Assembly: GCA_041909865.1 (NCBI GenBank)
Contig: JAYRRZ010000040.1
Coordinates: forward strand, 10,984 to 74,983
Reading direction: 5' to 3'
Origin: Candidatus Altimarinota bacterium
GTDB taxonomy: Bacteria; Patescibacteriota; Gracilibacteria; BD1-5; UBA2023
Length of the DNA: 64,000 nt
The notes beneath the pieces were generated by a model. The model saw nothing but the letters and a program-made list of their open reading frames with translations. It did not search any database and was not told the origin of the DNA. Positions 3,184 through 57,763 of the stretch are shown one piece after another. Made by a program: the position numbers and the translations under genes. Numbering within the stretch: the stretch's first letter is position 1; the number at the start of each line of letters is the position of its first letter.

Positions 3184-4260
3184 TTACTTTATACTCTTCC
3201 CCTTTTCTCCAGCAAGAGATTTTCCTTCTTCCTTGAGCGCGAGTTGACCACAGGCGGCATCAATATCATCACCCATAGTGTGACGAATAGTGGAAGGGAT
3301 TCCTGCTTGTTCTAGAGTATCCTGAAATTTTTTTATAATAATTTTTGACGTCGGTAAGAATCCATCACTACTCGTTCATTCTCCTGGATTATAAGGGATA
3401 AAATTCACATGAGCAAGTTTCCCTCGAAGGAGAATGGCAAGTTCCTTGGCATATTCGAGACGATCGGTTACTCCATTAATCATGATATATTCATAGAATA
3501 CTCGTTTGTTCGTCTTTTCAACATATCGATCAAGGGATGCCATGAGATTATGAATAGGGTAGGTATGGTCTACGGGCATGATTTTTTTTCTGGCTTCGTC
3601 ATTTGGTGCGTGGAGCGATATGGCAAGGGAGGTCTGAGGGAAATCATCACCAAATCGCTCAATTCCTGGGATAATTCCACAGCTTGAGACGGTAATCCTT
3701 CGATTGGAGAGGTCAAGTTTCTTCTGTGTGCAGGCAATCTGGATAGATTTCTTCACCTGTTCATAATTGAGAAATGGCTCACCCATTCCCATGTAGACGA
3801 TATTTCTGAGCTTCCTCTCCTCAGTATTGAGACGATGTATCGCCCATATAATCTGATCGATGATTTCATAAAATTCCAAGTTTCGGAGGAGCCCCAATTT
3901 CCCAGTAGCACAAAAAGCACAGGCCATCGGACATCACGCCTGAGAACTGACACACAGGGTGTTCCTTCCAGATAAGTGTCTCATGATAACCGCTTCAATC
4001 ATTTTTCCATCATGTGTCTTGAAGAGGCATTTTGTGGTTTGTCCATCTTCTCCAGTGGTTTCAGAATACACGGTGAGAGAAGAGTAGAAACAATTCTCTA
4101 TGAGTAGTTGTCGGATTTCTTTTGGCAGAGTTTCCATAACTCAAAAATCCGTTACCAGATTTTTGTAGAGAGCATTCTCAAGCTGGGCATATCGGAATTT
4201 TTTGTGACCATTTTGCTCGAGCAGGGTGATGACTTTTTCTTCATCATGAATAGAGAACAT
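3184..4260 (-). CDS. rlmN: 23S rRNA/tRNA m2A methyltransferase RlmN (radical SAM)
   Basis: Three same-frame pieces (3376..3927, 3934..4137 and an N-terminal part) joined by [21 protein letters not shown] radical-SAM box, MGMGEP, C-terminal DIDAACGQL. Confidence 0.9.
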
Positions 4261-4266
4261 AGATGC

Positions 4267-4641
4267 TTATGAATGATGATGTGATTGGGATTTTTTGAGG
4301 GCGAGACGGAGAGTCTCTGTTTTATCGAGAATTGGATTTCCCGTCTTTCGCTTGAAGCTCGATCCACAGGAGCAATGCTCCAAAAGTCACGCCTTATTGG
4401 TTATAATCCATTTCCCGGATACTGTAGTAAGCTTGGTGTTATTAAAAAACTCATTCTCATCTTTTTTGAAGTGGAAAGTAATGGTATCATATATCTCGCG
4501 CGAATCGGTTTCTGGATGTATTGACTCTGATACGGTGACTTTTTCTCCAGCACAACCTCATAATATGAGAAAAAACGAGACATCTGTGATGCCTCGTGCC
4601 TGCCAATCTGAAATGATTTGTTGAGAAAAAGGAAGAGTCAT
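4267..4641 (-). CDS. IscA/HesB-family iron-sulfur cluster insertion protein
   Basis: 124 aa with two in-frame TGAs. GCAGEKV and the C-terminal ...CSCGSSF motif are typical of HesB/IscA. Its ATG overlaps the upstream stop by one base (TAATG). Confidence 0.65.
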
Positions 4642-28180: not shown

Positions 28181-28239
28181 TTTTTTGCCTTTTTCTTGAT
28201 TAAATGATATAGTTGGTGTATCAATTAAACTTTTCGAAG

Positions 28240-30414
28240 ATGTTTACCTTCTTAAAAAATCTCTTCTTTACGATTTTTGCATGAGGAATTGCCTCTTTCT
28301 TCGTTATTTCTTCTTTTGTATTTTGACAAGCATCGGATTCTCCAGTGCATGAACAAGTACAGGAGAATGTGGTAAAGAAATATGTTCTGAGTGAATGAAA
28401 GACGGAAGAAAATGTAAAAACTCTTGTCTATAACGAGATCAAAAACGGAGAAATTTCCAGTTTTGATAAAAATTCAATTCTTTATGTTGAGTTTTGACGA
28501 CTTGCTTCTGCCTTTGTTCTTCCGAGTGGAACTGGATGAGTTATGGCGAGCACGGATGTACTTACGCTTTCTGGGCATGAGGTTTCTCTCACACAAGAAA
28601 ACCCAATAATTCTCTCTTTATACGACCCATTTTCTACGTACACGGTTCATTCTCCCAAAGGTGATTTCTCTATCAATCAGATTACGAATGGCAGTCTGTA
28701 TATCGGAGCAGAATCAAATGGCACCATTTCTCTCTATTCTATAGATTCAGTGGTAAAGCTCGATTTTCTCTCCAAGGGTGAATATATGGCAGATATTGTG
28801 CTCTTTCCTGGCATGTATGTTCGATTTAATCCAGCATTTAACTATATTTTCAAGGGTGTAACTGATCCATTTCGTGTAGCGCAAGTGGTTGGATCTGATA
28901 ATGCTCAGGATAGTAGTATGTGAACCACGGGTATAGAGTTTATCAATCCTCGTATGGATATTGGTTGAAATAGTGATACCTTCTTTGTGTATCGTCTTCC
29001 TCCAAGTACACGAATACTTTTCCAGATGCTTCATACAATGTTTCATGATAAAGTAGCCCAGATAGATATAATGAAATCATATGCAAATAGTGCTGCCTAT
29101 TCATCAGATCTTGCAGGAAGCATGTGGCTGAAGAATCCAGCAAAGATTAATCACTTTCTCTTGCTAGAACTTAAGGGAACCCTCTCTCAGGGACTTCAAT
29201 CTCAGACTACATTTGATGCATTTAATCGAAAAATAGCTCAAATTCGGGAGCGGGCAAAAGTCTTGGCAATCGGAAACACTGTAAATGCCACCTTTGAGGA
29301 ATTTCTCACCAATGGTCGTTTTGCTCTTTTTAGTAATACGGTAAGTCCCAAATATGAACGAATTTATCAGGAGGTAGCCTCAATTGTAGGAATTACTCCG
29401 ACTACATGAAAGGCAAAACTCTTCCAAAGACTTTCTGATATTTATTCTCATAACCTTGTTGCCCAGAAAAAAGATCTCTCGTTTTCAAAGATTGATACCT
29501 ATTTACCAACAGCACTCGAGCTCCAATGAACTCTTGAATCAGAAGACATTAGTCATAAAGATTATTTCGATATTGCACTGTATGCATACTCCCTTCTTGA
29601 AAAGGCAAAAAATGGACGATTGCTTGAACCACAGGCACTTACAGCACGTCCAACATTTCAACTCTTGTCTACATTATTTATAGCAACGAGTAAGTATGCA
29701 TCGTCTGTTGAGGATTTGGATCAGAGAAACAAGACATATAGAAGTATTGCATTGAATTTTTATGAACCAATGCTCCAAGTCCTCACAAGATCACTGTTTT
29801 CTTATTATACTACTACGGATGAGAATGGACATCTATTTCTCAATGAGAAAGCTATTAATAATGAGGGCAAGATTCGTATTCCTCGAGAGCTTATCCGTGA
29901 TTATAAGGCTATTGATAATACCACTCGTGGAGTTCTTGCTGAAATACAGCCAGCATACCTCGGTGAGAATGACACAAAGGTGTTTACCAGCATCAAACAA
30001 TCTACCCTAAGAATTCGTGCGTTTGCTGGAATATTGGCAGATGATATCTATCGCACATATCAACTTAGTCCATATCTATCAGTTGAAGATTATGGGGTAT
30101 TTCTTCCACAGTTATCTGATGATAATAGCTCGGTTGTTGTTGATACTGAGTTGATTAACACTGAAACTCCAGCAACAGAAGCTCAGCCTGATGCCTCTTC
30201 CTCTTCTCAGAGTCCAGCAGAATCCAACACTGAAACTCCAGCAACAGAAGCTCAGCCTGATGCCCCTTCTCAGAGTCCAGCAGAATCCAACACTGTAACA
30301 CCAGCCATAGAAGTTCAGTCAAGAGAAACACAGCCATCATCGGTTGCTACTCCTAATGCAGAAAATAGTCCTCAGTTGCCAACTCAAACAGAAGTAACTC
30401 AACCCGTTAATTAG
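28240..30414 (+). CDS. Large hypothetical secreted or surface protein (724 aa) with C-terminal Pro/Thr/Glu/Ala/Ser-rich repeats
   Basis: ORFs 28543..28923, 28987..29409 and 29620..30414 plus an N-terminal part form one frame joined by TGA. N-terminal hydrophobic segment. No family recognised. Confidence 0.6.
30157..30306 (+). repeat. Tandem coding repeat (69 nt, 63 nt and a partial unit) in the surface protein gene
   Basis: aacactgaaactccagcaacagaagctcagcctgatgcc...cagagtccagcagaatcc occurs twice, followed by a truncated third unit. Encodes NTETPATEAQPDA(SSS)SQSPAES. Confidence 0.8.
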
Positions 30415-31078: not shown

Positions 31079-31987
31079 CTATTGGATATCAACGATTTCA
31101 ACATCAAAATAAAGAGTTTTTCCCATAAGTGGATGTCATTGAGCAACAGTTACCACATCCTCCTTAATATCTTGGATGGTAATCTTTCCTTGAGGAGTAT
31201 CAATAGACTCACCAACAGCAAACTTCTTATCAAAGAATGGGCTTTGCTTGTTAGTTACCTCAAGAGTAACCCCGGTACCTTCAATCTTAGTAATCTTGAA
31301 AGTAGCACTTCCATCAGGTGAGTTAGCAACAGCTCCTACTTCAAGTTTTTTCTTGTAAAAAGGATTATCAGTGTTTGAGATTTCAAGAGTAATTACAGTG
31401 TCAGTTACTGCTGTAACTTTCGCTGTAGCATCGTTTGCTCCGGTAAATACATCACCCACCTTTGCTCCTTGCATATCCTGTCGGAGTTGGCTTTTTTCAA
31501 CGGTTTGAGTTACAGTATCTCCAAATACTGCCTTATCTTGAGTGATGGTAAGTACTGGGGCAATCTGGTATTTTGGAACTTCTCGACTTACAGGCTCTGT
31601 TCCATAGCCGAGCTCAGGAGTTACCATAATAGTTTTTTTCTCACCTTTCTTCATTCCGATGAGACCTTGTTCAAAGCCTGGAATAACCCCATTGCTACCA
31701 ATAATTACCTGAAATGGCTGGTATTGAGCACCAGTCGTGTAAAGATTGTTTGCCATAGCAACATCTTGAAGAGTTGTTTCAATAATTGCTCCATCTTGAG
31801 AATCTCCTCGGAGTGTATAGTTGAGAGAAACGATAGTTCCAGATTCAACCTGATTAGGAGTTACTTTTGCTACCGTGTCAGTAGTGCCTGTATTACCATT
31901 TACGGTGTCAGTGTTATTAGACATGATGCCAAATGAGCACCCAGAAAGTGCGAGCACGAGAATTGAGGAAACGAGTATATAACGCAT
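31079..31987 (-). CDS. FKBP-type peptidyl-prolyl isomerase lipoprotein (SlyD-like C-terminus)
   Basis: Lipobox LVLALSGCS; FKBP core PFQVIIGSNGVIPGFEQGLIGMKKGEKK; C-terminal HPLMGKTLYFDVEIVDI after one TGA. Confidence 0.8.
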
Positions 31988-32022
31988 AAATAATAAAATA
32001 GAATAATAAAAACGATATTATT

Positions 32023-32997
32023 CTATGAGATATTTTGTTTTTTCAACCCCATTAGGGCTATCTCTATTGAGAAAATACGTCATAATTCAACATCTTGAAG
32101 TCATTTTCCGCTTTTATAAGCCATATTTGCCTTTACTAATTCTTGATATATTTGTGCTAATTTCTCATAAGGAAGCTTTCATGAAAGGGATTTCTTGAGG
32201 ACGAATGGATGTATTTTTATGATTTTTGCGATATCATTTTCTGTTTTTCAATGATTTGCAAGAAACTTTACATACAAATGACCTCGAAGAAGTCCAATCA
32301 TGGATATGAGGAACTCAACAGGACTGGTGGTTTCCAGTATTTTCCTACACAGAACGATGCTTTCCTGGATTTTTCCAGAAAGCACCAAATCAATAAAGTC
32401 AAATATTTTCCCTCCTGATGGTATGTGAATAAAATCAGTGATAGTGATAGCAGTATTGAGAGAGGCACATTCAAGGGTTGTTGCTATGGTGTGTCAGATA
32501 TTTGGATTTCTGTTTTCTTCTTCTTGATTTGCCTCAGAGTTCTTATATATGGTGAGAATCTTTTGTAGGGATTCTTTGGGTATAGAATCAAATCTTTCAC
32601 TCCATTTTTCTATACTCCATAGAGTATCTATTTTTCTATTGTCAGCATTCTCTGTGAGCCATTTTAGCAGTCATTCTTCTTTTTTTGAGATATTATGAAA
32701 CAGACAGAAATGATCATCAGGAATACTGTCTCCAATTGTTTCAAGGATTTCCTCCAGTCCGCCATTTTTTGTTTTTCGATCGACTCATCCAGAGAAAATA
32801 AAGAGTCTTTTGTTTGCAAAGAGTCCTGTTGTAGTGAGATTGTCTCGTACCAGTGGAAAATCACCTCTATTTTCGAGACGAATCCGTTCTATGTTGAGTT
32901 CTCCATATTTTTCTTCGAATATTCATATCCATCGGAGCACTTCGAGCTCGACCCCGTAGCTATCATTTCCAGTTATGTATATGAGGTTTTTTTTCAT
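32023..32997 (-). CDS. holA: DNA polymerase III delta subunit
   Basis: 324 aa readable only with TGA=Gly. LFANKRLFIFSG and HPFVLKK...YEKLAQIYQELVKANMAYKSGK resemble the HolA N- and C-terminal domains. Confidence 0.6.
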
Positions 32998-33112
32998 GAA
33001 ATGGATTCTAAATCTTGCATTATAAGGCTTATTGTGTCTTCCTCCAAACTATGTACTTTTCATAATTGAAAAGAACCAAAAGCTTCTTCTTTTCGGTTTG
33101 CTCGTTTTGTAT

Positions 33113-33186
33113 TCTGTTTCCGACTCGTTTTCTAAAATTGCAAAATTCAGAAACGTTGCAATTTTCACGAAAACTTAGTCGACAGA
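33113..33186. repeat. Long imperfect palindrome between mscL and holA
   Basis: tctgtttccgactcgttttctaaaattgca ... ttgcaattttcacgaaaacttagtcgacaga. The arms are complementary with a few indels. Confidence 0.6.
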
Positions 33187-33234
33187 AAAACAAAACTCAC
33201 AAAAATAAAGAAGCAAATATTGGAATCAGGATGT

Positions 33235-33648
33235 CTATTTCTTGAGCAAATCCCGAATCTCCGTGAGGAGTTCGATATCGGTTGGTCCTGGTGCTTCCTT
33301 TGGTTTTTTTGGCATCGCCTTGTTCATGAGTTTTATCACCAAAAAGATACAAAATGCAATGATGACAAAGTTGATGCTAATAGTGACAAAATTTCCCCAT
33401 GCGAGAACTGCTCCAGCCTTTTTTGCATCAGCAAGAGGCATTCCAGCAGTTACTGTCATATTCCCAAAGGCATAATACATATTCGAGAAATCAAGACCCC
33501 CAGTGAGTTTCCCAATGACTGGCATGATAATATCCTCTACCAGAGAAGTCACAATCTTGCCAAATGCTCCACCAATAACAACCGCCACAGCGAGATCTAC
33601 CACGTTTCCCTTGATGGCAAAATCGCGAAATTCTTTGAATATCGACAT
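33235..33648 (-). CDS. mscL: Large-conductance mechanosensitive channel
   Basis: [43 protein letters not shown] is the canonical MscL N-terminus. Confidence 0.95.
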
Positions 33649-33754
33649 AAAAGAAGAAGTTAAGAATAAGAATGTATGTATTGTATGGAGTTTTTTTCAT
33701 ATTTCCACTTTACTTTGTTTATTTTTTGCCAATAGTGTTGATAATTATTGTTTT

Positions 33755-34348
33755 ATGAGAAAAATTGTTTTTTTCATTGTTGCGCTCTTATTTCTGGGGA
33801 TACTTGGTATCGGATATTTTGTTGGGAATCACTTTTTTTTCGGGAAACATCGAGTGGTCATCCTCACATCGATAGATCCGTCTACATGACAGATAACGCA
33901 GAAGGGAATGGGATATTATATCAATAATGATATCCTCATAACGAGTGCTCATGTTGTTTCGGACGATCGCAGCATCTATCGGGCAATGAGTATTGCATGA
34001 GTCATGAGCGAGAATCTCTCTGTGCAGATGCGATTTTCAGAGAGGGATATTGCCTTCTTGAATGCCTGAGAAACGGGCATATCATACACGATAAAAACTC
34101 TCCTAGTAGATCCTGATGTATCCGTTGGAGATAGCCTCAGTATACCATTATTCCGCTCCTGAGCTCTCATATGGATTGATGCACATGTTGCCTCCATTGA
34201 CACTCGAGTTCTCGCCTATGACGAGAGGGGACAGACACGCATCTTCTCAGGCATCATCCTCCCAGATACGCCATTTCTCCCTGGAGATAGCGGAGCTCCG
34301 ATATTTACCAAGTGGGGTAAGCTCATCGATGTAGTGCATGTGGAGTAG
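33755..34348 (+). CDS. Trypsin-like (S1) serine protease, membrane-anchored or secreted
   Basis: Catalytic triad contexts ITSAHVV, DIAFL and PGDSGAPIF. N-terminal TM segment. Five in-frame TGAs. Confidence 0.7.
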
Positions 34349-34397
34349 CGAGTTGGTAAGACAGGCGAGAATAGTAAGAGAAGGAAAAATAGACAAG

Positions 34398-34430
34398 AAA
34401 AAACCTAACCGGTTAAGGGTTAGGTTTTAT
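34398..34430. terminator. Bidirectional terminator between the convergent S1 protease and TrbL-like genes
   Basis: aacctaacc-ggttaag-ggttaggtt, flanked by an A-run and a T-run. Confidence 0.7.
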
Positions 34431-36721
34431 TTGTTGAAGAATTCGTCTTTAATTGCTTTTATTATTTCATCGAGTTTCTTTGGGTCACTAATTATTCAAG
34501 ATAGAGCAGTCCTAAGTGATTCCTTTGTAAATTGTCATTTGAGAGAAACATTACCCTCGATTCACTTAGCTATCTCAGTTGCAGAATTATTGAGGGTTAC
34601 TTTAGTATCTTGGTTGGTAATATTTCAAACTGAGAGAATAATATGATTTTGTTGTTTTCCATCTACTACTGCTTTAGTTCATCCTGATACTCAATTAATT
34701 CAAGTTGGATTTTCTCCATTACCTGATGTTCATCCTTTTCAGTACTTTTCTGTTACATTTCTTGCATCTATGTTACTGAAGTTTGATCCGCGGAGATCTC
34801 CACCAAGAAGTCATTGAAGCTTATAACTATCGTTTTCATTAAAATCCTGTTTTCAATCTTTAAGCTTCTCGACAAGCTTCTTGATTTCCAATTTTTCAGT
34901 CTGACCGTATTGATTGTTCTTTTCCACCATTCACATTATTTTATCAGTTTCTAATTTCTTTAGTTCTTGAAGTCCATTATTTCTGAATCAAGTTTGAGTC
35001 ATGCTCCGTGCAGCTTCTTGGAGTCATTGAGCATTATTTGTAAGAGCATCTCTGAGTTTCATAACTTCCTCTGTACTTGCTCATCCAGTTTGGCTTTTGA
35101 TAATCTTTCCTAATGTACTAGCTTCAAACCTTTTATTTGCCGCATACTCAGGTATCTGTCCAAGTCACGTTATAGTCTTGTTCATACCAGCTATACTTCC
35201 ACCCGGGAATGGGAGCGGTGTATACTTTGGTAGATCCTTTGCTAGGCCACCAAGCTTGTTTCCGATTTCCTCAAATGGTTTGACAGCGGCATCAACCGCC
35301 TTGCTCACTCACTTTGCTGCCATAAATGCTGCCCAGATAAAGACAAGAGCGATAATATCTATTATAATCGTTCATAGGGAATTTCCTGCAGCATCAAGCG
35401 CACCAAATATCTCAATATCGTTCTTATTATTTGATGCTGGTCACTCAAAGGTCCAGCTTATTCCTCATATTGTTACGGTCGTTTGGGTTGCATTCATAGT
35501 TTGCCCTTCAGCATCTTTCCCTTTATCAACTTTTTTAGCTAGTATTTGGTTTTCTGGAATACCAAACAAGACAATACATTTTGTGCCGCTTTCAGATGTA
35601 CCTGAACACTTGTCTCACTGTATTCATTTCTGTCCAGTCATCAAGGCTGAGACAATGACGAGACCAAATGAGAGTGTAATACCAACTACTGCAGGCACAA
35701 ATGCGAGACCAATAAATTCTTTGAGACTAAAGTCATTCATCTTTTCTCCGAGGATATCCTTGCCTAGGACAAAATGGAGCGTAAAGAGAGGTGAGAATAT
35801 AGCGTACATCCAGAGTTTAATAGCTCGCACGAGGAGTATAAAAATTAGCGCAATCACAAGAATACCAAAGACAAAGAACATGAGTACCCCAATAATACCT
35901 CGATGAACGAGTTGTATAGCCGCACTAATTACGTCGGTCGTACTACTAATATCTTGAATCTTTTCAAACTTAAATATACCATATCCATATGATACTAGGG
36001 GTGCCCATTGTCAGCCAGCATTTTGTGTAAATTTTGCTACTGAGAGACAAGAACCCTCATTTTCCTTACAGTCAGCTATTTTTTTCTGAATATAGCCACT
36101 GTTTGTATTGCTATTAAACTCAAGTTCTTTTGGTATTCTTGGTTTTGTCATCCATTCATCACTAATATTGAGTTTTGCAAGAGTATCTTGGGGTATTGTT
36201 ATTACTGATGCCGTTACTACGCTCGCAAGGGATATCGTCCATTGGACAAACCACCAAGTAAATGGTACCATGATGATACCGAGTGCGAGTTTCGGAAGGA
36301 GTGCTTTGTAGGAATACTTCTCTTGATTGAACATCGTCGCGAGAGCAATCACTATGAGGAGTATAGCATAGATGACATACAGGATATTGGAAACCGTTAC
36401 CCAGAGAGAGTGCATGACTCCACGGAGGCCAAAGAGGTCTCCACTCGTCCAATCTGGAGACATGAGCCATGAGGCAAGGATAATAGCAGGGGCACAGATT
36501 GCTGTGATAACGCCCATTGCCATATTCAGGTACTCAATCATAGTGTTCCACTTCTCGGATACAGTATCTTTATTTGCTTGGTCGGCAGCAAATATACTCG
36601 GAACTCATCCTATACTATAGCTGGTGATAGCATTACCTGATGATTGTTTCTCGATGCTCACAAAAAATCCCCCCAAACCAATCAGGGCGATGAGAGAAGA
36701 TGTAAGGATTTTTCGTATCAT
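34427..36721 (-). CDS. Large polytopic membrane protein (764 aa), TrbL/VirB6-like by topology, with about 330-aa hydrophilic C-terminal tail
   Basis: ORFs 36011..36541 and 35624..35881 plus about 400 downstream codons form one frame with 24 in-frame TGAs. Signal-like N-terminus, at least 6 long hydrophobic helices, then a Gly/Lys/Asn-rich tail. The family call is inference only. Confidence 0.5.
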
Positions 36722-36769
36722 GATGCTATTAGACCACAATTTGTTTTTTTTTGCAAATATTTCCTCTTT

Positions 36770-37615
36770 TTATTGGATGGATTGTTTTGCTTTTGCTTCA
36801 GATTCAGTTTGAATGAGATTGAGATCTTTGAGGAGATTGGTTCCAGAGCTTGGAATTGTCACCACAGCTCGTTTGATAAGAGCCTCTCGATTGCTTGAGA
36901 GAACTTCGATAAGATTCTTGTTTTTGGATTGGAGTTTGATGTAGAGTTCACGGAAGTTCTGGAGGTAAACGAGATACACACGAGCTCGGATATCTGTTTG
37001 CTTGGCCTTGGTATATCGAGAAATCGCAACATCTACATCAGTGTAATCGAGATTTATATAGGAAGATTGCATTTCTGCCTTTGATGATTCGATATCTGTC
37101 GCATCTCTTGTCACTATGGCATTGAGGTCTGCAATCTGCTCATCCAGAACCATGATACGTTCATTGGTTTGGTTGCCATAGTCTCTCAGAAGGGAAATAT
37201 GTTCATCGAGGGCGATAGTTCTATCAGTTGCTCTATCAAGCATACTTATAATATCAGTACTGAGGAGATTATTATAGGTATTGATTGCAACCATATTCCC
37301 ACCAATGAGACGTCTTTGCCCGTCCTCTGGATACGATACAACTTCTGCAATAGAGATCATGGCGCTCGAGAGATTTACGGGGATTTTTCCTGCTGATTTG
37401 TCCTTTTGTCCGATATTGAGACTCATTGCAGTCGCGATATTCCCAAGATAGGTAACATTTACCTGAGAGAACTTGGTATCATTGGTACTTGCATTGGTAC
37501 TGAGTCAGAACATCGGTGCGATATACGACCACGATAAATCAATAGCCAATGTGAATATAAGCGTCAGGATAAGTGTATTTTTTATGAAGTCCTTGATTTC
37601 GTTTTTGAAAAACAT
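36770..37615 (-). CDS. Secreted or membrane-anchored coiled-coil protein (281 aa), TrbJ/VirB5-like by position
   Basis: ORF 36770..37426 extended through one TGA to ATG 37613-37615. N-terminal TM segment (TLILTLIFTLAIDL). Heptad-like helical remainder. Lies directly upstream of the polytopic protein. Confidence 0.45.
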
Positions 37616-37755
37616 AGGATGAAGAAAATGAGGTATGAAATATAAGGTATGAGATATAGATTCCAAGCCGATAAAAGCTCTAATCGTGTATCTTCTCGTT
37701 CATATCTTATAACTGTGCTCATTTTACCCATTATTTTTCTTTTTGGCAAATAAAA

Positions 37756-40023
37756 ATGTATTTTTTCAAGATTTTCATCCCAATTTTCTGTGTAATTGCC
37801 CTGAGTTGTATCGAAATCATCCCAAAATATGATACTGCTATCGGGAAAATGTCGGTTATTTCCAGCTCTGAAATGACCTTGAGCTGAGAGACCTACTCTA
37901 TGACGTTTCATCAATCTACTGATACGGCCAATAATATATGGTATCTTGGAGTGAGCAAGGAATATGCTTTCTCGGATTCACATGACTTCTGTGCTTCCTG
38001 GAATGTAGGAAGCGAAACTCGTGTCTCGACTGAGTGTCTTGATTTTGATGGGGATGATACAACGGATGAACAGTATACATTTCCTGTACATTTTGCTCTA
38101 GAGTCTCGAAATATTTCTTTTACCATACATTCTCAGAAGCCATTCTCTTCTCAGGATATCACTTTGTATTCTATGAATACTAGGCCTATTGGGAATCGTA
38201 TTGTTTTTGCTCTCCCGAAGATTCAGGCAGATACAAAGATTATCTCTCGCAGTGAGTGGTGAGCCGATGAGACTATGCGCTATGCTGATAGTGGTCACTG
38301 GAAACAGAAATACCCAGCATACCTCCAGTATCTTGCCCGACCAAAAACTCAGGCAGAACTGGATGCTATCTATCTTGATAAGGCAAGGGTGGATTTTTTG
38401 AAGAAACACTTTCCTGATACCACCAAGACCATGAGTCATTCACGGTATGAAAATGGACATCTGCTCGTCTGGCCTATACAGAAAGTAAAAAAGGTCAATA
38501 GAATCGTTCTTCATCATACCGCAGAGAGCATGGAGAGCGCCGCAAATGACGAGGAGGTGTTGCGGGCAATCTATCGATATCATACACTCTCTCGACAGTG
38601 GGGTGATATCGGATATCACTATATAGTAGGACAACGGGGAAATATTTATGAGGGAAGAGCGTGAGGTGATTATGTGGTGGCTTCCCATGTACAGTATAAC
38701 AATATGGGAACGATTGGTATCGCTACAATGGGGAATTTTCAGAAAATGGTACTCAATCGTGATCAGCAGAATGGACTAGAAGAGGCTATTATGTTTGTTG
38801 CCAAGAAATACGGTATCACTCTCTCTGACAAGGCTCCATGAGTTCATCTTTGTAATACAGCAACGTGTTCCCCTCTTCAGATATTTACTGGGTCAGCTCT
38901 TTTGGGACACAGAGATATTGGTTCAACATCTTGCCCAGGGGATAATATTCACTCACTTATTCCAGATCTGATTAATCGACTCAATTCCATCTATAGTCCA
39001 ATCATAAACAAACGCTCTGGTTCTATAGACCCTCTTCCAAAAAATGAAGAGATGAATATGACATTGAATACAGCCTCTTCTGTTAAAGTAGTGCCGAATC
39101 AGGATATTCGTATATCTGTTGCCTCAACAACATCAAAATCTCGATATATTGGAAAGAAGTTTAAGGTCAAGCTATCATATCCTGATGAAAAAAGTATTGC
39201 TCTCTCTTTCCTTGAATGAGAATCAAAAAAGATCAGTCTCTGAAGTAAAAAAATATTGGTATGAACATGAGAAAATATTGTTGTATGAATAGTATGAAAT
39301 AACCGAATTGAGGTTTCTGTTGGGTGAAAAAAACATGAATGAACCGAACTGAAGGTTGCAGGTAATGTTGTTCGAATCAATTCTTGGAATCGTATTCCTA
39401 TGTGGGACAGTGCATGACGATATAATGACAATCTTTTTCGAGATACTATCGTCCTCAGGAATAATGGATGAAAACTCCTTGTGGTAAATGAGCTCCCACT
39501 TGAGTGGTATCTCCGTGGTCTCTGAGAAGTCTCAAATGGTGATATGCCAGAAAAGATAAAGACTATTACTGTAGCCGCACGATCGTATGCGAAGTATTAT
39601 ATGAATCCTCAGAATCGAAAATATGATACTAAGCTCTATGATGGTTCTGATGACCCAGATTCTTTTCAGAAATATCTTGGCTATGGATATGAAGCTCGAT
39701 CTCCAAATGTTATTACTCAAGTTCTAACAACAAAATGACTTGTCATCACATTTGATAAAAAACTCATAAAGCCATGGTATTTTTCTTCATCGAACGGAAG
39801 AACTCTATCTTTTGTTGAATACTGTAAAAATGCAGGAAAAACCGAATGTAATGATATCTCCTATCTTCAATCGGTAGATGATCCTGGTGGATATGGACAT
39901 AATCAGTCAGGTCATGGGGTTGGAATCTCTTGAATCGGTGCAACCTATTGGTCGGGACAATGATGGGGATATCAGAAAATCATTGGGTATTATCTTCCTG
40001 GGACGAAGGTGGAGAGGAAGTAG
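37756..40023 (+). CDS. Secreted peptidoglycan hydrolase fusion: N-acetylmuramoyl-L-alanine amidase (Amidase_2/PGRP) plus SpoIID/LytB domain (755 aa)
   Basis: ORFs 37900.., 38275.., 38902.. and 39544.. share one frame joined by TGA, ending in TAG at 40021-40023. IVLHHTAES...GDIGYHYIVGQRGNIYEGRA, GHRDIGSTSCPG. SpoIID part: ITVAARSYAKYY...YFSSSNGRT...GHGVGIS-G-IGA. Signal peptide MYFFKIFIPIFCVIALS. Confidence 0.75.
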
Positions 40024-50248: not shown

Positions 50249-50815
50249 ATGGAAAAATTAACAAAATCTCTTCGTGAACACGCTGAAAGATTTCCAGCGG
50301 AATCTGAGATGATTCATCGAATGATTGGCTTTCTCGAAAGAAATAATCAGAAATCTTTTCATAACTGGCATTGGGATGATGGACATATCACCGCTTCATT
50401 GCTCGTCGTGAATTCAGAGTTTACGAAGGTTCTCCTTATGTTTCACAAGAAACTCCAGAGATGGCTCCAATTTGGTGGACATAGTGATGATTCTCCAGAT
50501 GTTCTCGCTACCGCGATTCGGGAGTTTTATGAGGAGTCAGGCATTAAACAGGAACCAGAGATTTACCAGTATTCTGACTCCCAAGATTTCCCTATATTTG
50601 ATATTGATATCCATGATATTCCTGCTGATGCAAAGGGACGACCTGCACACAAACACTATGATATCCGATTTCTCGGCATTATCCCTGATGCGGTTGCCAT
50701 GAGTCGCCAAGTTGATGAGAGTGATGATATGCGCTGGTTTGATATCAATGGGGTAGAAAAATATCTTGAAGAAGAAGGTCTTCTTCGTATGATAGTGAAA
50801 GTAAAGATTTTATGA
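50249..50815 (+). CDS. NUDIX hydrolase
   Basis: Nudix box GGHSDDSPDVLATAIREFYEESGI. Confidence 0.8.
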   Translation: MEKLTKSLREHAERFPAESEMIHRMIGFLERNNQKSFHNWHWDDGHITASLLVVNSEFTKVLLMFHKKLQRWLQFGGHSDDSPDVLATAIREFYEESGIKQEPEIYQYSDSQDFPIFDIDIHDIPADAKGRPAHKHYDIRFLGIIPDAVAMSRQVDESDDMRWFDINGVEKYLEEEGLLRMIVKVKIL

Positions 50816-51282
50816 AAATAGCTATCCGTCCAAAATACACATTTTTTGATTTAGATAGGTTTAATTTTGCAATTGAGCATATTTTACTTACTCAATACAA
50901 GGCTGGATCCAGGGATGATGATGCCCCAAAAACCACAGACTGTATTACGGCGGTTCGCTATATTCTCAAGCATTCTTCAGATTTCATCCTTCCTAATGGA
51001 TATATTGGTGATTTTCCGAATATTCTCCTTAAACAATGATCACAAAAAATTCCAGTTTCAGAAGTACAGGAGTGAGATCTTATTTTCTTTGAGCGAATGT
51101 CCTTTACTCATGCAAAGTATATGATTACACATATTGGAGTTATGGTTTCTAACACTGAGTTTTTCCATTCTTCGCTTCATTTTGGATGAGGAAAGATTTC
51201 CTCTGTGGAAGATTTTGATTATAAGAATAGTATTCTCGACGAATCATTTCTCGCGATTGCTCATGATCCACGTAACCAATAA
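50812..51282 (+). CDS. NlpC/P60-like cysteine peptidase
   Basis: Cys context TTDCITAVRYIL and His context ITHIGVMV. ATGA overlap with the Nudix gene. Three in-frame TGAs. Confidence 0.45.
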
Positions 51283-51285
51283 TTC

Positions 51286-52458
51286 ATGAAAAAAACACTC
51301 TTCATCATCGACGCATACAATCTGATTTATCGGATGTTCTATGCTATTCCTGAGATGCATACTCGCTCATGACAACCGGTAAATGCAATTTTCTGAGTAG
51401 CGAAGTTCCTCAAGTGACTTGCTGAGGAGAATCCAGAGGCTGCTCTCGTGGTGGCAACAGATGTGGGAAAGAGCTTTAGACAGGATATGTATGTCGAGTA
51501 CAAGGCACAAAGAGACAGGATGCCAGATAATCTCAGTTCTCAGATTGATGGAGTGTTTGATTTGTTTCGTCTGGCTTCAGTAGATATAATCTCTATGGAG
51601 TGATATGAAGCAGATGACATCATTGGATCTATCGCTCATCAATATGAGAATAATTCGTATCAGATTGTGATTATCTCTTCGGATAAGGATCTCTGTCAGT
51701 TTGTTCGAGATGGACACGTACATATCTATGATGCTATGAAGCGCAAATTCATGAAGGAATCTGATGTACTGGAGAAATTCTGAGTTCCAACTCATCAGGT
51801 TTGTGATTATCTCGCGATTGTTGGAGATAGTTCAGATAATATTCCTGGGATATCCGGTTTTGGGCCAAAGAAAGCGGTTGATCTCCTCTCGAAGTATGCC
51901 ACTTTAGATGGAATCTATGCACATCTTGGTGAATTGACGAGCAAAATGCAGGAAATCCTCACAATCCAGAAAAATAATGCCTTCCTCTCTCAAGAGCTCG
52001 CTACTATAAAGACAGATCTTCCAATAATTCCTCTTCCAGAGGTAGCTTTTGCTCAGTGAATCGAAAATGATGCATATATTGAGATTCTCCGAAAATATGA
52101 GTTCCGTTCCCTCATTCCAGTGGGAAAAGATATCCCACAGAAAGCATCCCCATCAATCCAAGTCGAGCCTATTACGATGATGCATGATCTCCAGAAGATA
52201 GAGCATCTTATCCGAGAAGGAAAGATTAAAAAGTTGATTATTTCAACCGATTCCCTTGGGAAGATATTTCTCTGAAGTGGCGAATTAATGTATAGTATTG
52301 ATACTGCTATAATTGATGTGAGTGAATTCCTCGAGGTCTTGTTTTCTTCAGATGTTGAGCTCGTTGGCTATAATCTCAAGGCTGACATCAAGCGACTTCA
52401 TGCCATACAAAAACCCCTGGAATCAGGGGTTTCGGAGGAGCAGGGGAGATTGTTTTAG
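51286..52458 (+). CDS. Pol I-type 5'-3' exonuclease (FEN domain) with a truncated 3'-5'-exonuclease-like tail; no polymerase domain
   Basis: LFIIDAYNLIYRMFYA, SSDKDLCQ, VGDSSDNIPGISGFGPKKAVDLL. Ends at TAG 52456-52458. Confidence 0.8.
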
Positions 52459-53738
52459 GCTTTATTTCCATATAGCTTATCTAATACTTGTACCACTTGT
52501 CTTCATGCCTCTGAAGATTTATTATTCATACGGTCTCCATTATGGTAACTGAGTCATGAAGCATCTTTTGCAATAGCTGCCCACTCTGCTGCAAGATTCA
52601 ACTGAAAATCACGCTTCAACATACGTCATGCCTTGAAATCTTGCAGTCATCGCTCATTCAGTTTCAAGAATGCAAGCCGGTCTTGAGTTTCCTTAGAAAA
52701 TATAGTAGAACCACTAATTTGATATTTATCCATCATTCACTCGAGAGTAGCAGTCATGAACTGATACCGTCATATTGCGGCTGATCAGCGTCATTTTGTA
52801 TAGCGTCTTTGGTAGTTGAGAATCTGATCAAGAGTCATTTCAGTAAATTTTTCCTCATACTGTCCAGCGTTTCCGTAGATAGCATTATAGTTATTTCAAG
52901 TTCATTCCGCAATTGATATAAATTTTAGAAGACCGTAGTCTCACTCACCTATATCATTTATATCAAAATTGATGGTTCAGTATTTCTGCATATTGGACAT
53001 TTCCTCTTGTGCCATTTTTTCCAGTCAGACATCTTCTGGAAGCCTTGTTATGGCAACTCAATTATTATTGATAGTGTCACGTGTACGAATCTTTTGCCAT
53101 CTCTTTTCTGCCGCATCATTTGCTGCTTGGAGTTCAGATTCAGGAATAGTATCTTTCCTCTCAACAATTGCTATCGTGTATCCATCATAGATTGCTTGGT
53201 ATTCTCATTTTATGTCATAATATCCTGGACGCGGAATATTGCGACGTTCACATTGTACCCCATTGATTGTAACTTTTGTCACTTGAGCAGGAAGGATATC
53301 TCCAGCACCAATCTTTTGTGCAATATCTTTGTTGCCACCGAAATTCACAATAAATGTATCACCACTCTTCATTGCAGATGAATTGGCAGCTTCGGCAGGA
53401 TTCGACTCTCGAACTAAAGTAAGACCTGCAATATCAACTCCATATTTTCTAAGCAAACCGAGATCTGATCCAAGATAGGTTTCTGGGTTTTTCCCTGCAA
53501 GAATTACTCTGCGAGGATCTAGCCCACCTGGCTTACAGGAAGTAACCTTTCTAATAGCAATAAATTGTTCTAGACGAGTAATATTTCTTTGAATTGACTC
53601 CTTCTCTTGAGTCGGGGCATCTTCTAACTCTTTTCGGAGCTGAGCGAGTTCCTTCACCACACTAAGAATTTCCCGCTTTTCTGGTATAAGCGAAGGATTT
53701 TCTGACGGGGCGTAGCTATAGAATACTCGTACTTTCAT
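52455..53738 (-). CDS. Fusion protein: unknown about 230-aa N-terminal region plus lambda-type lysozyme / lytic transglycosylase (GH104-like) domain; no signal peptide seen
   Basis: ORF 53205..53738 continues through 14 TGAs. ISIAEGTGNNYNAIYGN ... SAAIGRYQFM ... ETQDRLAFLKLNERG ... EWAAIAK parallels phage lambda R (AWSEGT...GAGRYQLL...SQDAVALQ...WASLPG). Confidence 0.6.
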
Positions 53739-53787: not shown

Positions 53788-54144
53788 CTATTTTGAGAGT
53801 TCAAGGAGAGCAACCTCCTCGGTCTCATAGACAGGGATAATACTGGTGATTCCTACGAGATCAAGGGTATCACGTACCTCAGATGAAAGGGTGCAGAGAC
53901 TGAATTTCCCTCGTCCATCCTCTGTTCGCTGAGCCATATCAGCGATATATCCGATGGATTTACTATTAAGATAGGAGAGATGTTCAAAGTTGAAGAGAAC
54001 TTTAACATTGGTGAAATCTCCAATATCGTTGATAATATTTGGGAAAGTAACATCAACGTTGGTCTCGTCGAGTTCCCCATGGAAAGAGAAGATTTTGATT
54101 CCAGTATTAGTAGAAGACTTCTTTACTTCAAGTTGTGTAAGCAT
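53788..54144 (-). CDS. STAS-domain anti-sigma-factor antagonist (SpoIIAA-like)
   Basis: 118 aa. FSFHGELD...LSYLNSKSIGYI...VRDTLDLVGI pattern. Confidence 0.65.
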   Translation of the reverse strand: MLTQLEVKKSSTNTGIKIFSFHGELDETNVDVTFPNIINDIGDFTNVKVLFNFEHLSYLNSKSIGYIADMAQRTEDGRGKFSLCTLSSEVRDTLDLVGITSIIPVYETEEVALLELSK

Positions 54145-54270
54145 AAAAAGAAATTTAAGATTTTGAAATTTTATAGGAAATTCCGCCTATTGCAAGTTCA
54201 AGTATATCACGTTTATTGTATTCATGCAAATTTTTCCTTGCATTTCTCTTGTTTTTTGTACACTTTCGTC

Positions 54271-55245
54271 ATGAATTATTCAATTCTTGACCCACATAAA
54301 ACCCATTCAGAATCTTTCTGGCAATCATCCACGTGGTTCAATATTCTTTCTCGATCAGGGCAGATTTCTGATATTTTCTTTTTCTGATCAAGTTCAGAGA
54401 CTTGGATGCTGATAGAGATTCGGTCTATCGGACTTGGGCAGTTGGGGGCTTTTGCTCTTGGAGTGTCTTCTTCTCAGATTCATGCAGATTTTCCGGATTT
54501 CCTGGATTCTCTCATCTCACACTTGAGAGACAAGCAAGTGCTATTCCTCCAAATTGAGCCAATTGAAGAGATTACTCCACTTCAGGATACAAAACCGACA
54601 GAGTGCTATAAAAAATTCCTGACCCCACATACTCGTATTATTCATCTTGATCGGTCACTTGATGAGATTCTTATTGGTATGCATGAAAAAGGACGGTATA
54701 ATATACGACTTGCTGAAAAACGATGAGTGAGTATCCAGAAAGTGGATGCAACAAAAGAAAATATCGATATATGGATGCGCTTGCTCATGGAAACAACGAC
54801 CCGAGATGGATTTTTTCAGAATTCACGTTCTTATTATGAGACCTTTGTTACGGAGCTTCAGGATGCACAGAGTGGTTGACTCTATTTTGCTTTCTTTGAG
54901 GGGAAGGTTATTGCGGCTGGAATCTTCGTTTTTTTCTTGAACTCGGCAATATACTACTATTGAGCATCATCAACTGATAGGGAAATGCGAAAGCATATGG
55001 CACCGTACTTGCTCCAGTGGAATGCAATAAAAGAAGCAAAATCCAGAGGTCTTGCACTATTTGATTTTCTCTGAGTTGCTGATCCAGAAAATCAGCATGA
55101 CCCTCTCCAGTGAGTTACGGAATTCAAGGAAAAATTCGGATGAGAACGTAGAGAACTCCCCAAGAAACATATGTTTATCCTTTCCTGGAAATATCAGGGA
55201 CTCAATCTGCTAAGGAAAATAGCGTCTATGCTCAGAAATCGTTAA
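54271..55245 (+). CDS. FemAB/MurM-family peptidoglycan interpeptide-bridge aminoacyltransferase
   Basis: HEKGRYNIRLAEKRG, ...YYYGASSTDREMRKHMAPYLLQWNAIKEAKSRGLALFDF..., EFKEKFG. About 8 in-frame TGAs. Confidence 0.6.
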
Positions 55246-55248
55246 TCT

Positions 55249-56370
55249 TTAACGAATACGGCAATGAGGGAAAGTCTCCACTTCTTTTGCTCAGAAGTTG
55301 TGGAGATGTGGCTTCATAAAGTCAGAGGGAACAAGATGGAGGTCTACTTTTCCTAGATTTTTCCAGTACCATTTGAGAGTGAGATATTTCAAGGCTCGAG
55401 CGATATACTCTAGGGGGGATTTTGTATCCCCAATAAAGTCACGATACACAAAACCATGTGAAATCTGTATTTCGCTGGTTGTTTTAGACGGTCTTGCTGT
55501 GATGAGCCCGAGATCATGATGGGTCATAATGGTCGGTTTTCCAGACTTAAGAATGGCAGATACTCACCATGGTCATACATATCGTGACACTGAGTGCATC
55601 CAGATAACATCAGGTTGCACTTCCTCGATGACTCTTTTCATCCATGCCTTATGTCAGAATGCAAATGGAGACCATAATGAGAGAGCTATTCGCTTCCATC
55701 GGGGAAGCGGTCAGCGATATCAGGCAAATCGTACGATTTTTCCGAGGTCTGTGAGTTCTTTTTTGAGAAAAGCAATATAGTTCTCCGCTCACCCAATAGG
55801 TGCAAGATAGTCATGGATGATAAGAATTGAGTTTATATGCTTCACCACGAGCTTGAGCTCTTCTCGCCAAAGATTTTCTTCGTAGAGAGAGAGGTCGACA
55901 GTGGTATGTATTCATTCAAAGATTATTTGTTCAAGAATCTTCAGCAAACTGTCTCAAGTATTTGTCTCGTCAAGGGCAAGATTATCAGGAATAAATGGGA
56001 CGAGTCATCATTTTCTGAATCCGCAGACAGGTACTCACTCCTTGAGTGATTCAAGTGCTACGAGGCCAAAGGTTTCTAAAAATATCGAAGGCACAATTGA
56101 TAGGTGCATTGTTTTTCGTAATTCATCGAGCTGAGCGGTATCCATTTTCCCGTAGAGAGTAATTCATTCTGGAAAACGCTTTCTCATTCATTCCAAAAGA
56201 TTCATATCTTTTCATTCGCCTACGATATGCCAATGAACTATCTCTCAGAAGTTCGTATGAATCATGGTCTTCTTTATGCAATCAATAAGAGCCTGGATTC
56301 ATTTCTCCTCGACGATTCTCCCAACAAACAGAATATTAAAAGGACTATGTTTCGTATATATGGCGTCCAT
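55249..56370 (-). CDS. GT4-family glycosyltransferase with apparently swapped (circularly permuted) domain order
   Basis: A single 373-codon frame. Residues 1-175 form the C-terminal-type domain (NILFVGRIVEEKGI..., E-x7-E ETFGLVALES). Residues 176-373 form the N-terminal-type domain (ILIIHDYLAPIGGAENY...HHDLG...LVPSDFMK). Confidence 0.6.
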
Positions 56371-57661
56371 GAGTTCTTTTTGATAGTAATATTCCTATAA
56401 GCAGAAATAATAAAAGAGAAAGAGGTGCTGATTCAAAGGTATGAAGAAAGAGATTCATAACAGCAATTCCTACAAACATCGATCAGAGTATGATATGTTT
56501 TCAGACAAGTTTCCAAAATATAGTGAACATAAACGCCAAGAATGCCATCCCGCCAATCACTCCACCTTCCACCAGTTGTTGTAGATACCAACTTTCAGGA
56601 ATATAGTATGCATCGGATTTTTCTATCGCTGATCTATCCTGTCATTCGAGCTTCTGGGTGTGACGGTATGCGGGCCCAGAGCTTCCGAGTCATTGTCCAA
56701 ACGGATGTTCTATAAAACGTTCTATGCTTGTTTTCATGCGTTCAAGGTGTCATTTGGTTGAACCTGCTCGTCCAATAATTGCCCCAAGAGTTCCTGAGTA
56801 TTGGAAGAATAGTATTCCTAAGAAGAAAACAGCAAAGAGACTAATGCCAATAAATTGTTTTCGATATTTCCCAATTATATGTCTCATGCTCATGCCAAGA
56901 GCAAAAACATATCCCGCCATTACCCCAAGAAGTGCACTTCTTGAGTACGTGTATACAATCATAATAATGAGAAAGAAGAGGATGAGTCAACTAACGAAGT
57001 ACCAATCTCTCTTATTTTTCATAAAATAAGCGAACATCCCAGAAAAAAGAATCAAGAATGCCCCCATGGTATTTGGTCCATCGAGTATGCCCTGAAATCG
57101 GCGCACATTGGCTCAGTCTATTCCGTGAAATATTGGGGGAACACCTCAAAATTGCCAAGATGATGGATTTCCAGAATATCAGAAATACAGGAGAAGGTCT
57201 TCCGAGAGAGGGAATTTTAGGATTCCACTCAAGAAGAGCATAATTCCTGTTGATACCAGAAAAAGTTTTATGTAGTATGATGTTGGTTTCATGAGGAATT
57301 CTGCCCCATGATACGTTACGAGGAACATGATAATAAATTCAAAGTCATACCTTCCACCATAGATAATTCCTGAGAGTCCGGTGGTTCCTATACTTATGAG
57401 AATCAGATAGGATATGTATAAGCCAATAATAGCATCAATCCAGCCAAGATGAGTACGAAATTCATTTTTTATGTATTTGTATACAAGGAACACTATGGCA
57501 CCAAAGATAAGGACTTCTTTGAGATAGGTAAGACCTCGTATTCAGAGTTCTTGGCTCGTAAAAACTGATACCAATGTGGTAAAAGGAAGTAAAATAATCA
57601 AGAAACGAATAATTGCATCAAAGAATCCTACTTCCGTATTTCAAACTCTCAATTTGTCCAT
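56345..57661 (-). CDS. O-antigen ligase/polymerase (Wzy_C)-like polytopic membrane protein
   Basis: ORFs 57179..57493 and 56750..56962 are in one frame and joined by TGAs. YSRSALLG motif and an extracytoplasmic loop. Confidence 0.55.
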
Positions 57662-57763
57662 AGAAAAAGAAAAAAAACCTTGCCAATAGTAATGATTTTT
57701 ATAGAATATGCAAGATTTCTTTGGTCTAAAATCACCCAGAAATCCTTTCTTATTCATACTTTT

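Follow-up and report, generated by a model that had tools for sequence, protein, structure and literature searches.

A cluster of three genes, here called A, B and C, was analysed in a 64,000-nt stretch of DNA (the window) from a Candidatus Altimarinota bacterium of the Gracilibacteria (assembly GCA_041909865.1, contig JAYRRZ010000040.1, positions 10,984 to 74,983). A and B encode membrane proteins and lie in tandem on the minus strand, and C encodes a wall hydrolase and is read divergently from them. The open reading frames (ORFs) of the 64-kb window were read with genetic code 25, in which UGA specifies glycine. Under this code the whole window resolved into long genes, whereas under table 11 the region was a mosaic of short ORFs only; table-11 ORFs are useless here because the genome is UGA-recoded. 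The features of the locus, numbered from the first nucleotide of the window, are listed below.

34427..36721, minus strand: gene A, code-25 ORF of 764 aa with 24 in-frame TGA codons
36770..37615, minus strand: gene B, code-25 ORF of 281 aa with 1 in-frame TGA codon
37756..40023, plus strand: gene C, code-25 ORF of 755 aa with 18 in-frame TGA codons
37616..37755, no strand: divergent intergenic region of 140 nt, common to B-A and C
37749-37721, minus strand: sigma-70-like site TTGCCA-17-TAAAAT, a candidate by consensus match alone
34400..34428, no strand: bidirectional terminator-like hairpin with an 11-bp stem, a 7-nt loop and T-runs on both strands

A preliminary description of this DNA, made from the sequence alone, had placed three ORFs, two spacers and a bidirectional terminator at the locus. 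The coordinates and lengths of all three ORFs were borne out under code 25, as were the 48 nt between B and A and the 140 nt between the divergent genes B and C. The terminator likewise held up in the form of the hairpin, which overlaps the stop codon at the 3' end of A and separates it from a convergent protease gene. The ATG starts of A and B are supported because the N-termini are conserved among homologues: M1 of B was invariant in 46 aligned sequences, and the consensus of the A family begins MxxKIxTS.

Wall hydrolase C and membrane proteins A and B

The N-terminus of C reads as a signal or anchor sequence, predicting export, and two enzyme domains follow it.

38488-38943, plus strand: Amidase_2/PGRP domain of C, aa 245-396 (Pfam PF01510, 56.1 bits against a cutoff of 26)
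39481-40020, plus strand: SpoIID/LytB domain of C, aa ~576-755 (TIGR02669 and PF08486)

The SpoIID/LytB domain scored 87.3 bits with NCBIfam TIGR02669 (cutoff 83.3; aa 576-711) and 34.3 bits with PF08486 (cutoff 23), and both domains of the secreted Amidase_2-SpoIID fusion named in the preliminary description therefore lie above the Pfam and NCBIfam cutoffs. When C was aligned to solved PGRPs, the motifs VLHHT (251), DIGYHY (284) and GHRDIGSTSCPG (384) matched, and VLHHT and GHRDIGSTSCPG give the His-His…His…Cys pattern that marks catalytically active zinc amidases such as T7 lysozyme and the PGRPs. The candidate zinc ligands are HH(253-254), H(385) and C(392), the last two within GHRDIGSTSCPG, and by analogy to T7 lysozyme and the PGRPs we take these residues to hold the zinc. 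Further along, GLGEV (588) aligned on the (G/S)EM motif of the SpoIID structures 4RWR and 5I1T, the Glu of which is presumably the catalytic residue of SpoIID, and GHGVG (719) was retained.

Judged from these motifs, C is a genuine Amidase_2 and SpoIID/LytB fusion whose catalytic motifs appear intact. Its two domains are ordinary representatives of known enzyme families; their fusion is unusual. In sporulation, and among characterised homologues, an amidase first denudes the glycan and the SpoIID lytic transglycosylase then cleaves it. It is plausible that C would be a self-sufficient bifunctional enzyme, with its amidase stripping the stem peptides and its SpoIID domain cutting the denuded glycan. 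A complete peptidoglycan pathway is present in these organisms (PMC6851277).

A comprises an N-terminal hydrophobic helix, 7-8 hydrophobic segments within residues 64-474 and a hydrophilic tail (aa 475-764; composition G 36, K 33, N 24). The at least six hydrophobic helices given earlier for A were confirmed, and its tail, put at ~330 aa, measured 290 aa. Two Cys-containing loops of 77-87 aa lie within the conserved transmembrane (TM) core (aa ~53-495). The best-conserved stretches were aa 81-160, 281-360 and 441-480, the tail was the least conserved part, and Cys218 was nearly invariant across the family. A structure model was built with AlphaFold2 (AF2) from the homologue P0001, which is 82% identical to A and has Trp at the UGA positions; the model was multi-domain with a mean predicted local distance difference test (pLDDT) score of 64.9. 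Besides the N-terminal helix, it predicted long TM helices at residues ~53-87, 99-130, 138-174, 261-323, 342-362 and 446-470, two loop domains with conserved cysteines, a helical tail and a small C-terminal domain with pLDDT above 90.

The N-terminus of B is rich in Lys and is followed by one TM helix (aa ~10-33) and a conserved juxtamembrane linker (aa 37-88). Its AF2 model, built from the homologue P0115 (99% identical to B), had a pLDDT of 72.6 and predicted long helices at residues 96-118, 132-188 and 194-241, which would form a bundle with pLDDT above 90. The linker was of low pLDDT, yet it was conserved in sequence with invariant residues. An N-in, C-out orientation is suggested because the Lys-rich N-terminus precedes the TM helix, which suggests that the helical bundle is extracytoplasmic. 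The 71 homologues of B (42-99% identity) were fixed in length at ~277-283 aa.

The close homologues of A numbered 114; all were annotated as 'hypothetical', came from Gracilibacteria or 'Altimarinota' and lacked a Pfam domain. An exhaustive profile search returned 1,756 representative clusters (50% identity) at E<=1e-3 and 348 at E<=1e-30, and the A family was confined to code-25 lineages, namely the Gracilibacteria and JAEDAM01. No Pfam or NCBIfam model scored above threshold for the window A, the family consensus or 112 family members. Similarly, no Pfam, NCBIfam or PDB profile match above threshold was obtained for the window B, its consensus or 46 family members. In Foldseek against the PDB, the best matches of B were the generic helical bundles AhlC, ClyA and Vipp1 (E~1e-2, TM-scores below 0.4), and no VirB5 was returned. 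By sequence comparison, A and B are membrane proteins without detectable relatives outside the Gracilibacteria/JAEDAM01 lineages. A literature search found no paper on the trio or on the A and B families. Most public protein entries of the two families (P0001-P0309) were translated with UGA as Trp (3-7% Trp) or as stop, or were fragmentary, and searches with both families were degraded because the database entries are mistranslated or fragmentary.

Genomic context and conservation of the trio

A scan of a genome collection yielded 80 further A loci, and 93 loci were examined in all. An intact A required code 25 in all 93 of these, which included Gracilibacteria and at least one JAEDAM01 genome. 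The contexts of A were defined by local hidden Markov model searches and clustering, and the phylogeny of A was a rough neighbour-joining (NJ) tree. The contexts were:

C divergent from B-A: several deep clades of the A tree; the complete genome OY970170.1 has the trio
AspRS divergent from B-A: without C
Protein of ~1,250-1,300 aa divergent from A: the c22 clade (loci L009-L014, L019, L026 and L043), without B and C
GatB upstream of A in the same direction: without B and C nearby; includes the complete genomes CP042461.1, CP017714.1 and CP060226.1
Protein of ~900-1,150 aa upstream of A in the same direction: loci L032, L048, L052 and L071

Four relatives, with 35-40% identity in A, share a block of genes that runs from dCTP deaminase through C, B, A, a small protease, MscL, holA, FKBP and TrmD to RuvC. 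In close relatives such a block carries little weight alone, long-range synteny being generally strong in the group. Two distant members, with about 20-25% identity in A, had wholly different flanks and kept C divergent from B-A, which answered the question of co-localisation raised in the preliminary description. The trio was flanked by NrdR and methyltransferase genes at locus L006 and by FtsH and GIY-YIG genes at locus L007. The linkage of C with B-A is real because the arrangement recurs in deep clades with unrelated flanks, and the trio is a real, widely conserved, co-localised unit.

B stood directly upstream of A at 32 of 77 A loci and was absent from that position at the other 45, and C was present at 16 of the 27 B-A loci with room for it; both counts come from a biased sample. 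When loci were selected through B instead (L091-L096), all four with enough flank carried C divergently and A downstream. Of the three genes, A alone was retained in every clade.

An origin of the contexts as paralogues was considered and rejected: by the NJ tree and taxonomy, most genomes hold a single copy of A, and the context follows the clade. Since the contexts track clades and the trio occurs in several deep branches, one copy per genome and an ancestral trio are suggested, and not paralogy. The sole duplication among ~90 loci was a tandem of A-family genes (755 and 723 aa; L063, 7537-12004) in one Gracilibacteria metagenome-assembled genome. The c22-clade genome CG2_30_37_12 (L012) has been classed as JAEDAM01 (PMC12102498), so that at least two recoded classes have the A family.

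The identified neighbours of A in other clades, named by reading or from Pfam, included genes for translation (GatB, AspRS, SerRS, ArgRS, RluA, an HPF-like protein), other housekeeping functions (RelA/SpoT, an O-methyltransferase, a HemN-like protein, an AAA ATPase, GroES, a histidine kinase) and surface or exported proteins (a type IV pilin, a solute-binding protein, a trypsin-like protease). No mobile-element genes were found among the identified neighbours in any context; these were housekeeping or envelope genes instead.

The ~1,250-1,300-aa partner in the c22 clade is conserved and hydrophilic, has no Pfam match and occupies the position that B and C hold in the trio clades. At L032, L048 and L052 a 180-aa TPR protein lies between the large protein and A, and the large protein of L032 showed, by eye, a signal peptide and many repeated domains.

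Proposed type IV secretion ancestry of A and B

The preliminary description had labelled B and A as a TrbJ/TrbL-like (VirB5/VirB6) pair, possibly derived from a type IV secretion system (T4SS). On this explanation A would be an extremely divergent VirB6/TrbL channel subunit, B an extracytoplasmic accessory and C a VirB1-type hydrolase, with VirB4 encoded elsewhere. The layout of the trio is in its favour. A bitopic helical protein precedes a polytopic long-tailed protein, which stands beside a two-domain hydrolase, as in TcpG-TcpH of pCW3 and Orf15-Orf14 of Tn916; ConG-CwlT of ICEBs1 is a further pair of a VirB6/TrbL protein and a wall hydrolase. A also has the at least five TM helices and the large loop of polytopic VirB6/TrbL proteins, a feature that is not family-specific.

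Part of the likeness lies in weak profile matches. TrbL_4 (PF19597) was the Pfam match of lowest E among A members and among the most recurrent, and it was seen in 3 of 112 (2/52 and 1/60), with a best E of 9.1e-5 and every score below the gathering score. In P0059 the match (20.6 bits against a cutoff of 27) spans aa 267-331, within the conserved 281-320 block that belongs to a TM hairpin of the core, and outside the low-complexity tail. For B, the most recurrent weak match was CagS, a protein of the cag T4SS, in 11 of 46 members (best E 4.6e-4, sub-threshold). Against this, the family consensus sequences of A and B matched neither TrbL_4 nor CagS even at E<=10, the window A had no TrbL_4 match, and PF04610 matched no A-family sequence.

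The other comparisons gave the explanation no support. NCBIfam searches of the A and B families returned no T4SS models, and PDB profile searches with A and B, in a database that includes VirB6 and CagS structures, gave nothing at E<=10 beyond coiled-coil noise. Foldseek of the A model (pLDDT just 64.9) against the PDB had its best match in CorA (E 0.39) and returned no T4SS chain. With hhalign, the A family profile was aligned to PrgH, TcpH and Tn916 Orf15 with probabilities of 2.2%, 0.9% and 1.4%, on single-sequence templates of low sensitivity. B is TM-anchored, unlike VirB5/TrbJ, which are secreted by a signal peptide.

T4SS genes were sought with phmmer and more than 20 probes from pCF10, pCW3 and Tn916 (PrgJ, TcpF, Orf16, PcfC, TcpA, PrgI and others), a search of limited sensitivity. 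The 64-kb window yielded no ORF like VirB4 or VirD4, and 87 loci yielded no VirB4-, VirD4- or PrgI-like ORF within 8-10 kb, apart from one FtsK-like ORF; the Pfam annotations at 6 loci held no T4SS families. At L091-L096 the ORF matches were to C, B and A only, with no T4SS ATPase. The earlier statement that no VirB4 or VirD4 lies nearby thus holds for the window and for 8-10 kb at 93 loci. The PrgK, TcpG and Orf14 probes gave no phmmer match to C.

Beyond its lack of significant sequence or structure similarity, and of nearby genes for VirB4, VirB3 or a coupling protein, the trio differs from the VirB6/TrbL systems in two further respects. The hydrolases of those systems combine a lysozyme, SLT or glucosaminidase domain with NlpC/P60 or CHAP, whereas C combines Amidase_2 with SpoIID, which is no known VirB1 architecture. 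The trio is also chromosomal, amid housekeeping genes and with no mobile-element signature.

These negatives are not decisive, given the moderate quality of the A model and the reported dispersal of T4SS genes in Gracilibacteria. A 2025 survey found VirB4 in most Patescibacteria and described VirB6 in Gracilibacteria as 'absent, suggesting extreme sequence divergence' (PMC12102498). In the same survey the TrsD and VirB3 homologues of Gracilibacteria lay mostly away from virB4, and CG2_30_37_12, a genome with an A homologue, was listed as VirB4-positive (PMC12102498). These observations are in favour of the explanation. The TrbJ/TrbL label nonetheless failed every test able to confirm it, and Foldseek, which had been proposed with it, and hhalign returned no VirB6, VirB5, PrgH or TcpH match; nor did A or B give a confident match to any unrelated family. 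T4SS ancestry of the trio is possible, unproven and, in our estimate, rather unlikely. What stands of the preliminary description as a whole is the conserved trio and the reasonable proposal of an envelope module with a hydrolase; the T4SS-derived TrbJ/TrbL pair does not.

A possible lineage-specific envelope module and its alternatives

The reading that we prefer, as possible rather than probable, takes the trio for a lineage-specific module of the envelope, with a membrane complex of B and A that would position or gate the hydrolase C and so open the peptidoglycan locally. B, with its N-terminus in and its bundle out, would form a membrane complex with the polytopic A, and its extracytoplasmic bundle and juxtamembrane linker would tether or gate C. 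The peptidoglycan would then be opened only locally, for the division or wall remodelling of the cell itself or for the passage of a surface structure. Since other clades retain A where B or C is missing, A would be the core component of the module. In favour of this reading, C is divergent from the two-gene unit B-A and the arrangement is kept across deep clades; the Lys-rich N-terminus and the invariant linker residues of B would fit a partner interface.

Known systems that pair hydrolases with membrane partners offer parallels. The SpoIID-SpoIIM-SpoIIP engulfment machine, like the trio, joins an amidase and a SpoIID lytic transglycosylase to a polytopic membrane protein. It differs in that C fuses an amidase of the Amidase_2 and not the SpoIIP type to SpoIID, and in that the organisms with the trio are non-sporulating; no SpoIIM match was found for A or 112 family members. 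In FtsEX-EnvC/PcsB an extracytoplasmic coiled-coil or helical-bundle adaptor likewise stands beside a polytopic protein and a hydrolase, whereas the trio has no FtsX domain and no ABC ATPase, and B has no LytM or CHAP domain. In Chlamydia, which is non-sporulating and has a reduced genome, a SpoIID homologue and AmiA process septal peptidoglycan at the division septum. These are separate proteins with no A- or B-like partners, whereas the trio has the fusion C. By this comparison, the trio appears to resemble known systems of hydrolase and membrane partner in logic only, not by homology. At ~14.1-15.9 kb the window encodes a separate ABC ATPase with a permease, a pair that by reading resembles FtsE/FtsX.

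Several points weigh against an envelope module of this kind. The link between C and B-A is one of gene adjacency alone. A is found without C in the AspRS clade, and without B and C in the GatB and c22 clades; since A occurs without C, its role is not limited to serving C. No similarity of A to SpoIIM or FtsX, or of B to EnvC, was detected, and no ATPase is adjacent. The model of A is moderately confident (pLDDT 65), and the positive-inside rule, applied to A by hand, gave contradictory results for its topology and hence for the side of the tail.

The same distribution bears on a second explanation, which we consider somewhat unlikely: that A, with B optional, is a general lineage-specific membrane protein unrelated to C, such as a transporter for lipid or nutrient uptake in lipid-auxotrophic cells, its adjacency to C being inherited. 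A, alone of the trio, persists in every clade, and the GatB and c22 clades have it without B or C in the vicinity. This agrees with the explanation, as do the 45 loci without B directly upstream and a setting that is housekeeping in every context and in a group of strong long-range synteny. However, C and the divergent B-A stay together in several deep clades even where the flanking genes have been wholly replaced, and the trio was present at every B-selected locus with enough flank. The short divergent intergenic region was also maintained, and neutral retention over such distances is unlikely.

The envelope module was further considered in the light of strain variation, for which one pair was compared, the window and L091, a 7.4-kb contig. 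L091 matched window positions 31830-39269 at 98-99% DNA identity, and the A orthologues were identical except in two places.

34652..35101, minus strand: hypervariable tail segment of A (aa ~541-690), 20-30% protein identity with flanks at ~100%
36026..36145, minus strand: variable Cys-containing loop of A (aa ~193-232), nine clustered substitutions around Cys218 and Cys225

In the tail segment, window positions 34696-35098 were unaligned in blastn against L091, the counterpart there being 4172-4562. Such local replacement between near-clonal strains would be a typical signature of diversifying selection or cassette exchange, and suggests that part of A is exposed to outside selection, for example by a host or phage. 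A is distinct from the hypervariable gene described by Sieber et al. (PMC6851277), which carries a PTD repeat.

These two variable places lend some support to a host-attack or contact apparatus of an epibiotic or predatory cell, in which C would digest the prey wall and the tail of A would provide strain-specific recognition. The hypervariable cassette of ~150 aa and the variable Cys loop, between strains of ~99% identity, would suit such a role, and so would a wall-degrading enzyme predicted to be secreted and self-sufficient; the relatives in culture live as epibionts or predators (cited in PMC12102498). On the other side, the contradictory topology analysis of A gave no sign that the tail is extracellular, C seems to be anchored or secreted at the surface of its own producer with no obvious targeting domain, and the module lies among housekeeping genes and has no toxin or adhesin domains. 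We regard this apparatus as quite improbable. In a broader form, which we hold to be unlikely, A and B would be the core of an unrecognised surface apparatus of UGA-recoded Patescibacteria, either unrelated to known secretion systems or a new VirB6-diverged class. It would act as a channel or contact device, with the variable tail and Cys loop facing the host and C cutting the wall.

Gracilibacteria and their relatives are largely uncultured and host-dependent, and their cell-surface machinery is mostly uncharacterised. What is new here is that two large uncharacterised families, A and B, are tied to a wall-cutting enzyme, and the strain-variable region of A is of the kind expected at host or phage interfaces. 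If A were the VirB6 that the 2025 survey did not find, the picture of a dispersed, repurposed T4SS would be completed; if not, A would be a candidate new envelope device. The trio is a solid conserved unit whose possible connection with the VirB6 missing from Gracilibacteria can be tested, and none of the present findings would come as a surprise to specialists.

Other genes of the window were also recorded. No tRNA or Rfam matches were found in the 64 kb. The gene convergent with A (33755-34348, plus strand) encodes a 197-aa membrane-anchored trypsin-like serine protease (Trypsin_2, 32 bits), and close relatives have a counterpart at the equivalent position. At 28213-30414 (plus strand) lies a gene for a 733-aa protein with an N-terminal TM helix and no Pfam match, which ends in a Thr/Pro/Ala/Glu/Gln-rich repeat (…TETPATEAQPDA…SQSPAESNT…); the syntenic protein of relatives has 748-784 aa. 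Wall and envelope genes occur downstream at 50812-51282 (plus strand), 52455-53738 (minus strand), 53980-55245 (plus strand) and 56345-57757 (minus strand). The downstream genes include those for an NlpC/P60 peptidase (37 bits; Tn916 Orf14 match at 1e-7), a FemAB-family protein, a membrane protein of O-antigen-ligase type by eye, and a 427-aa protein with no Pfam match and a C-terminal 'AIGRYQF' motif, lysozyme-like by eye.

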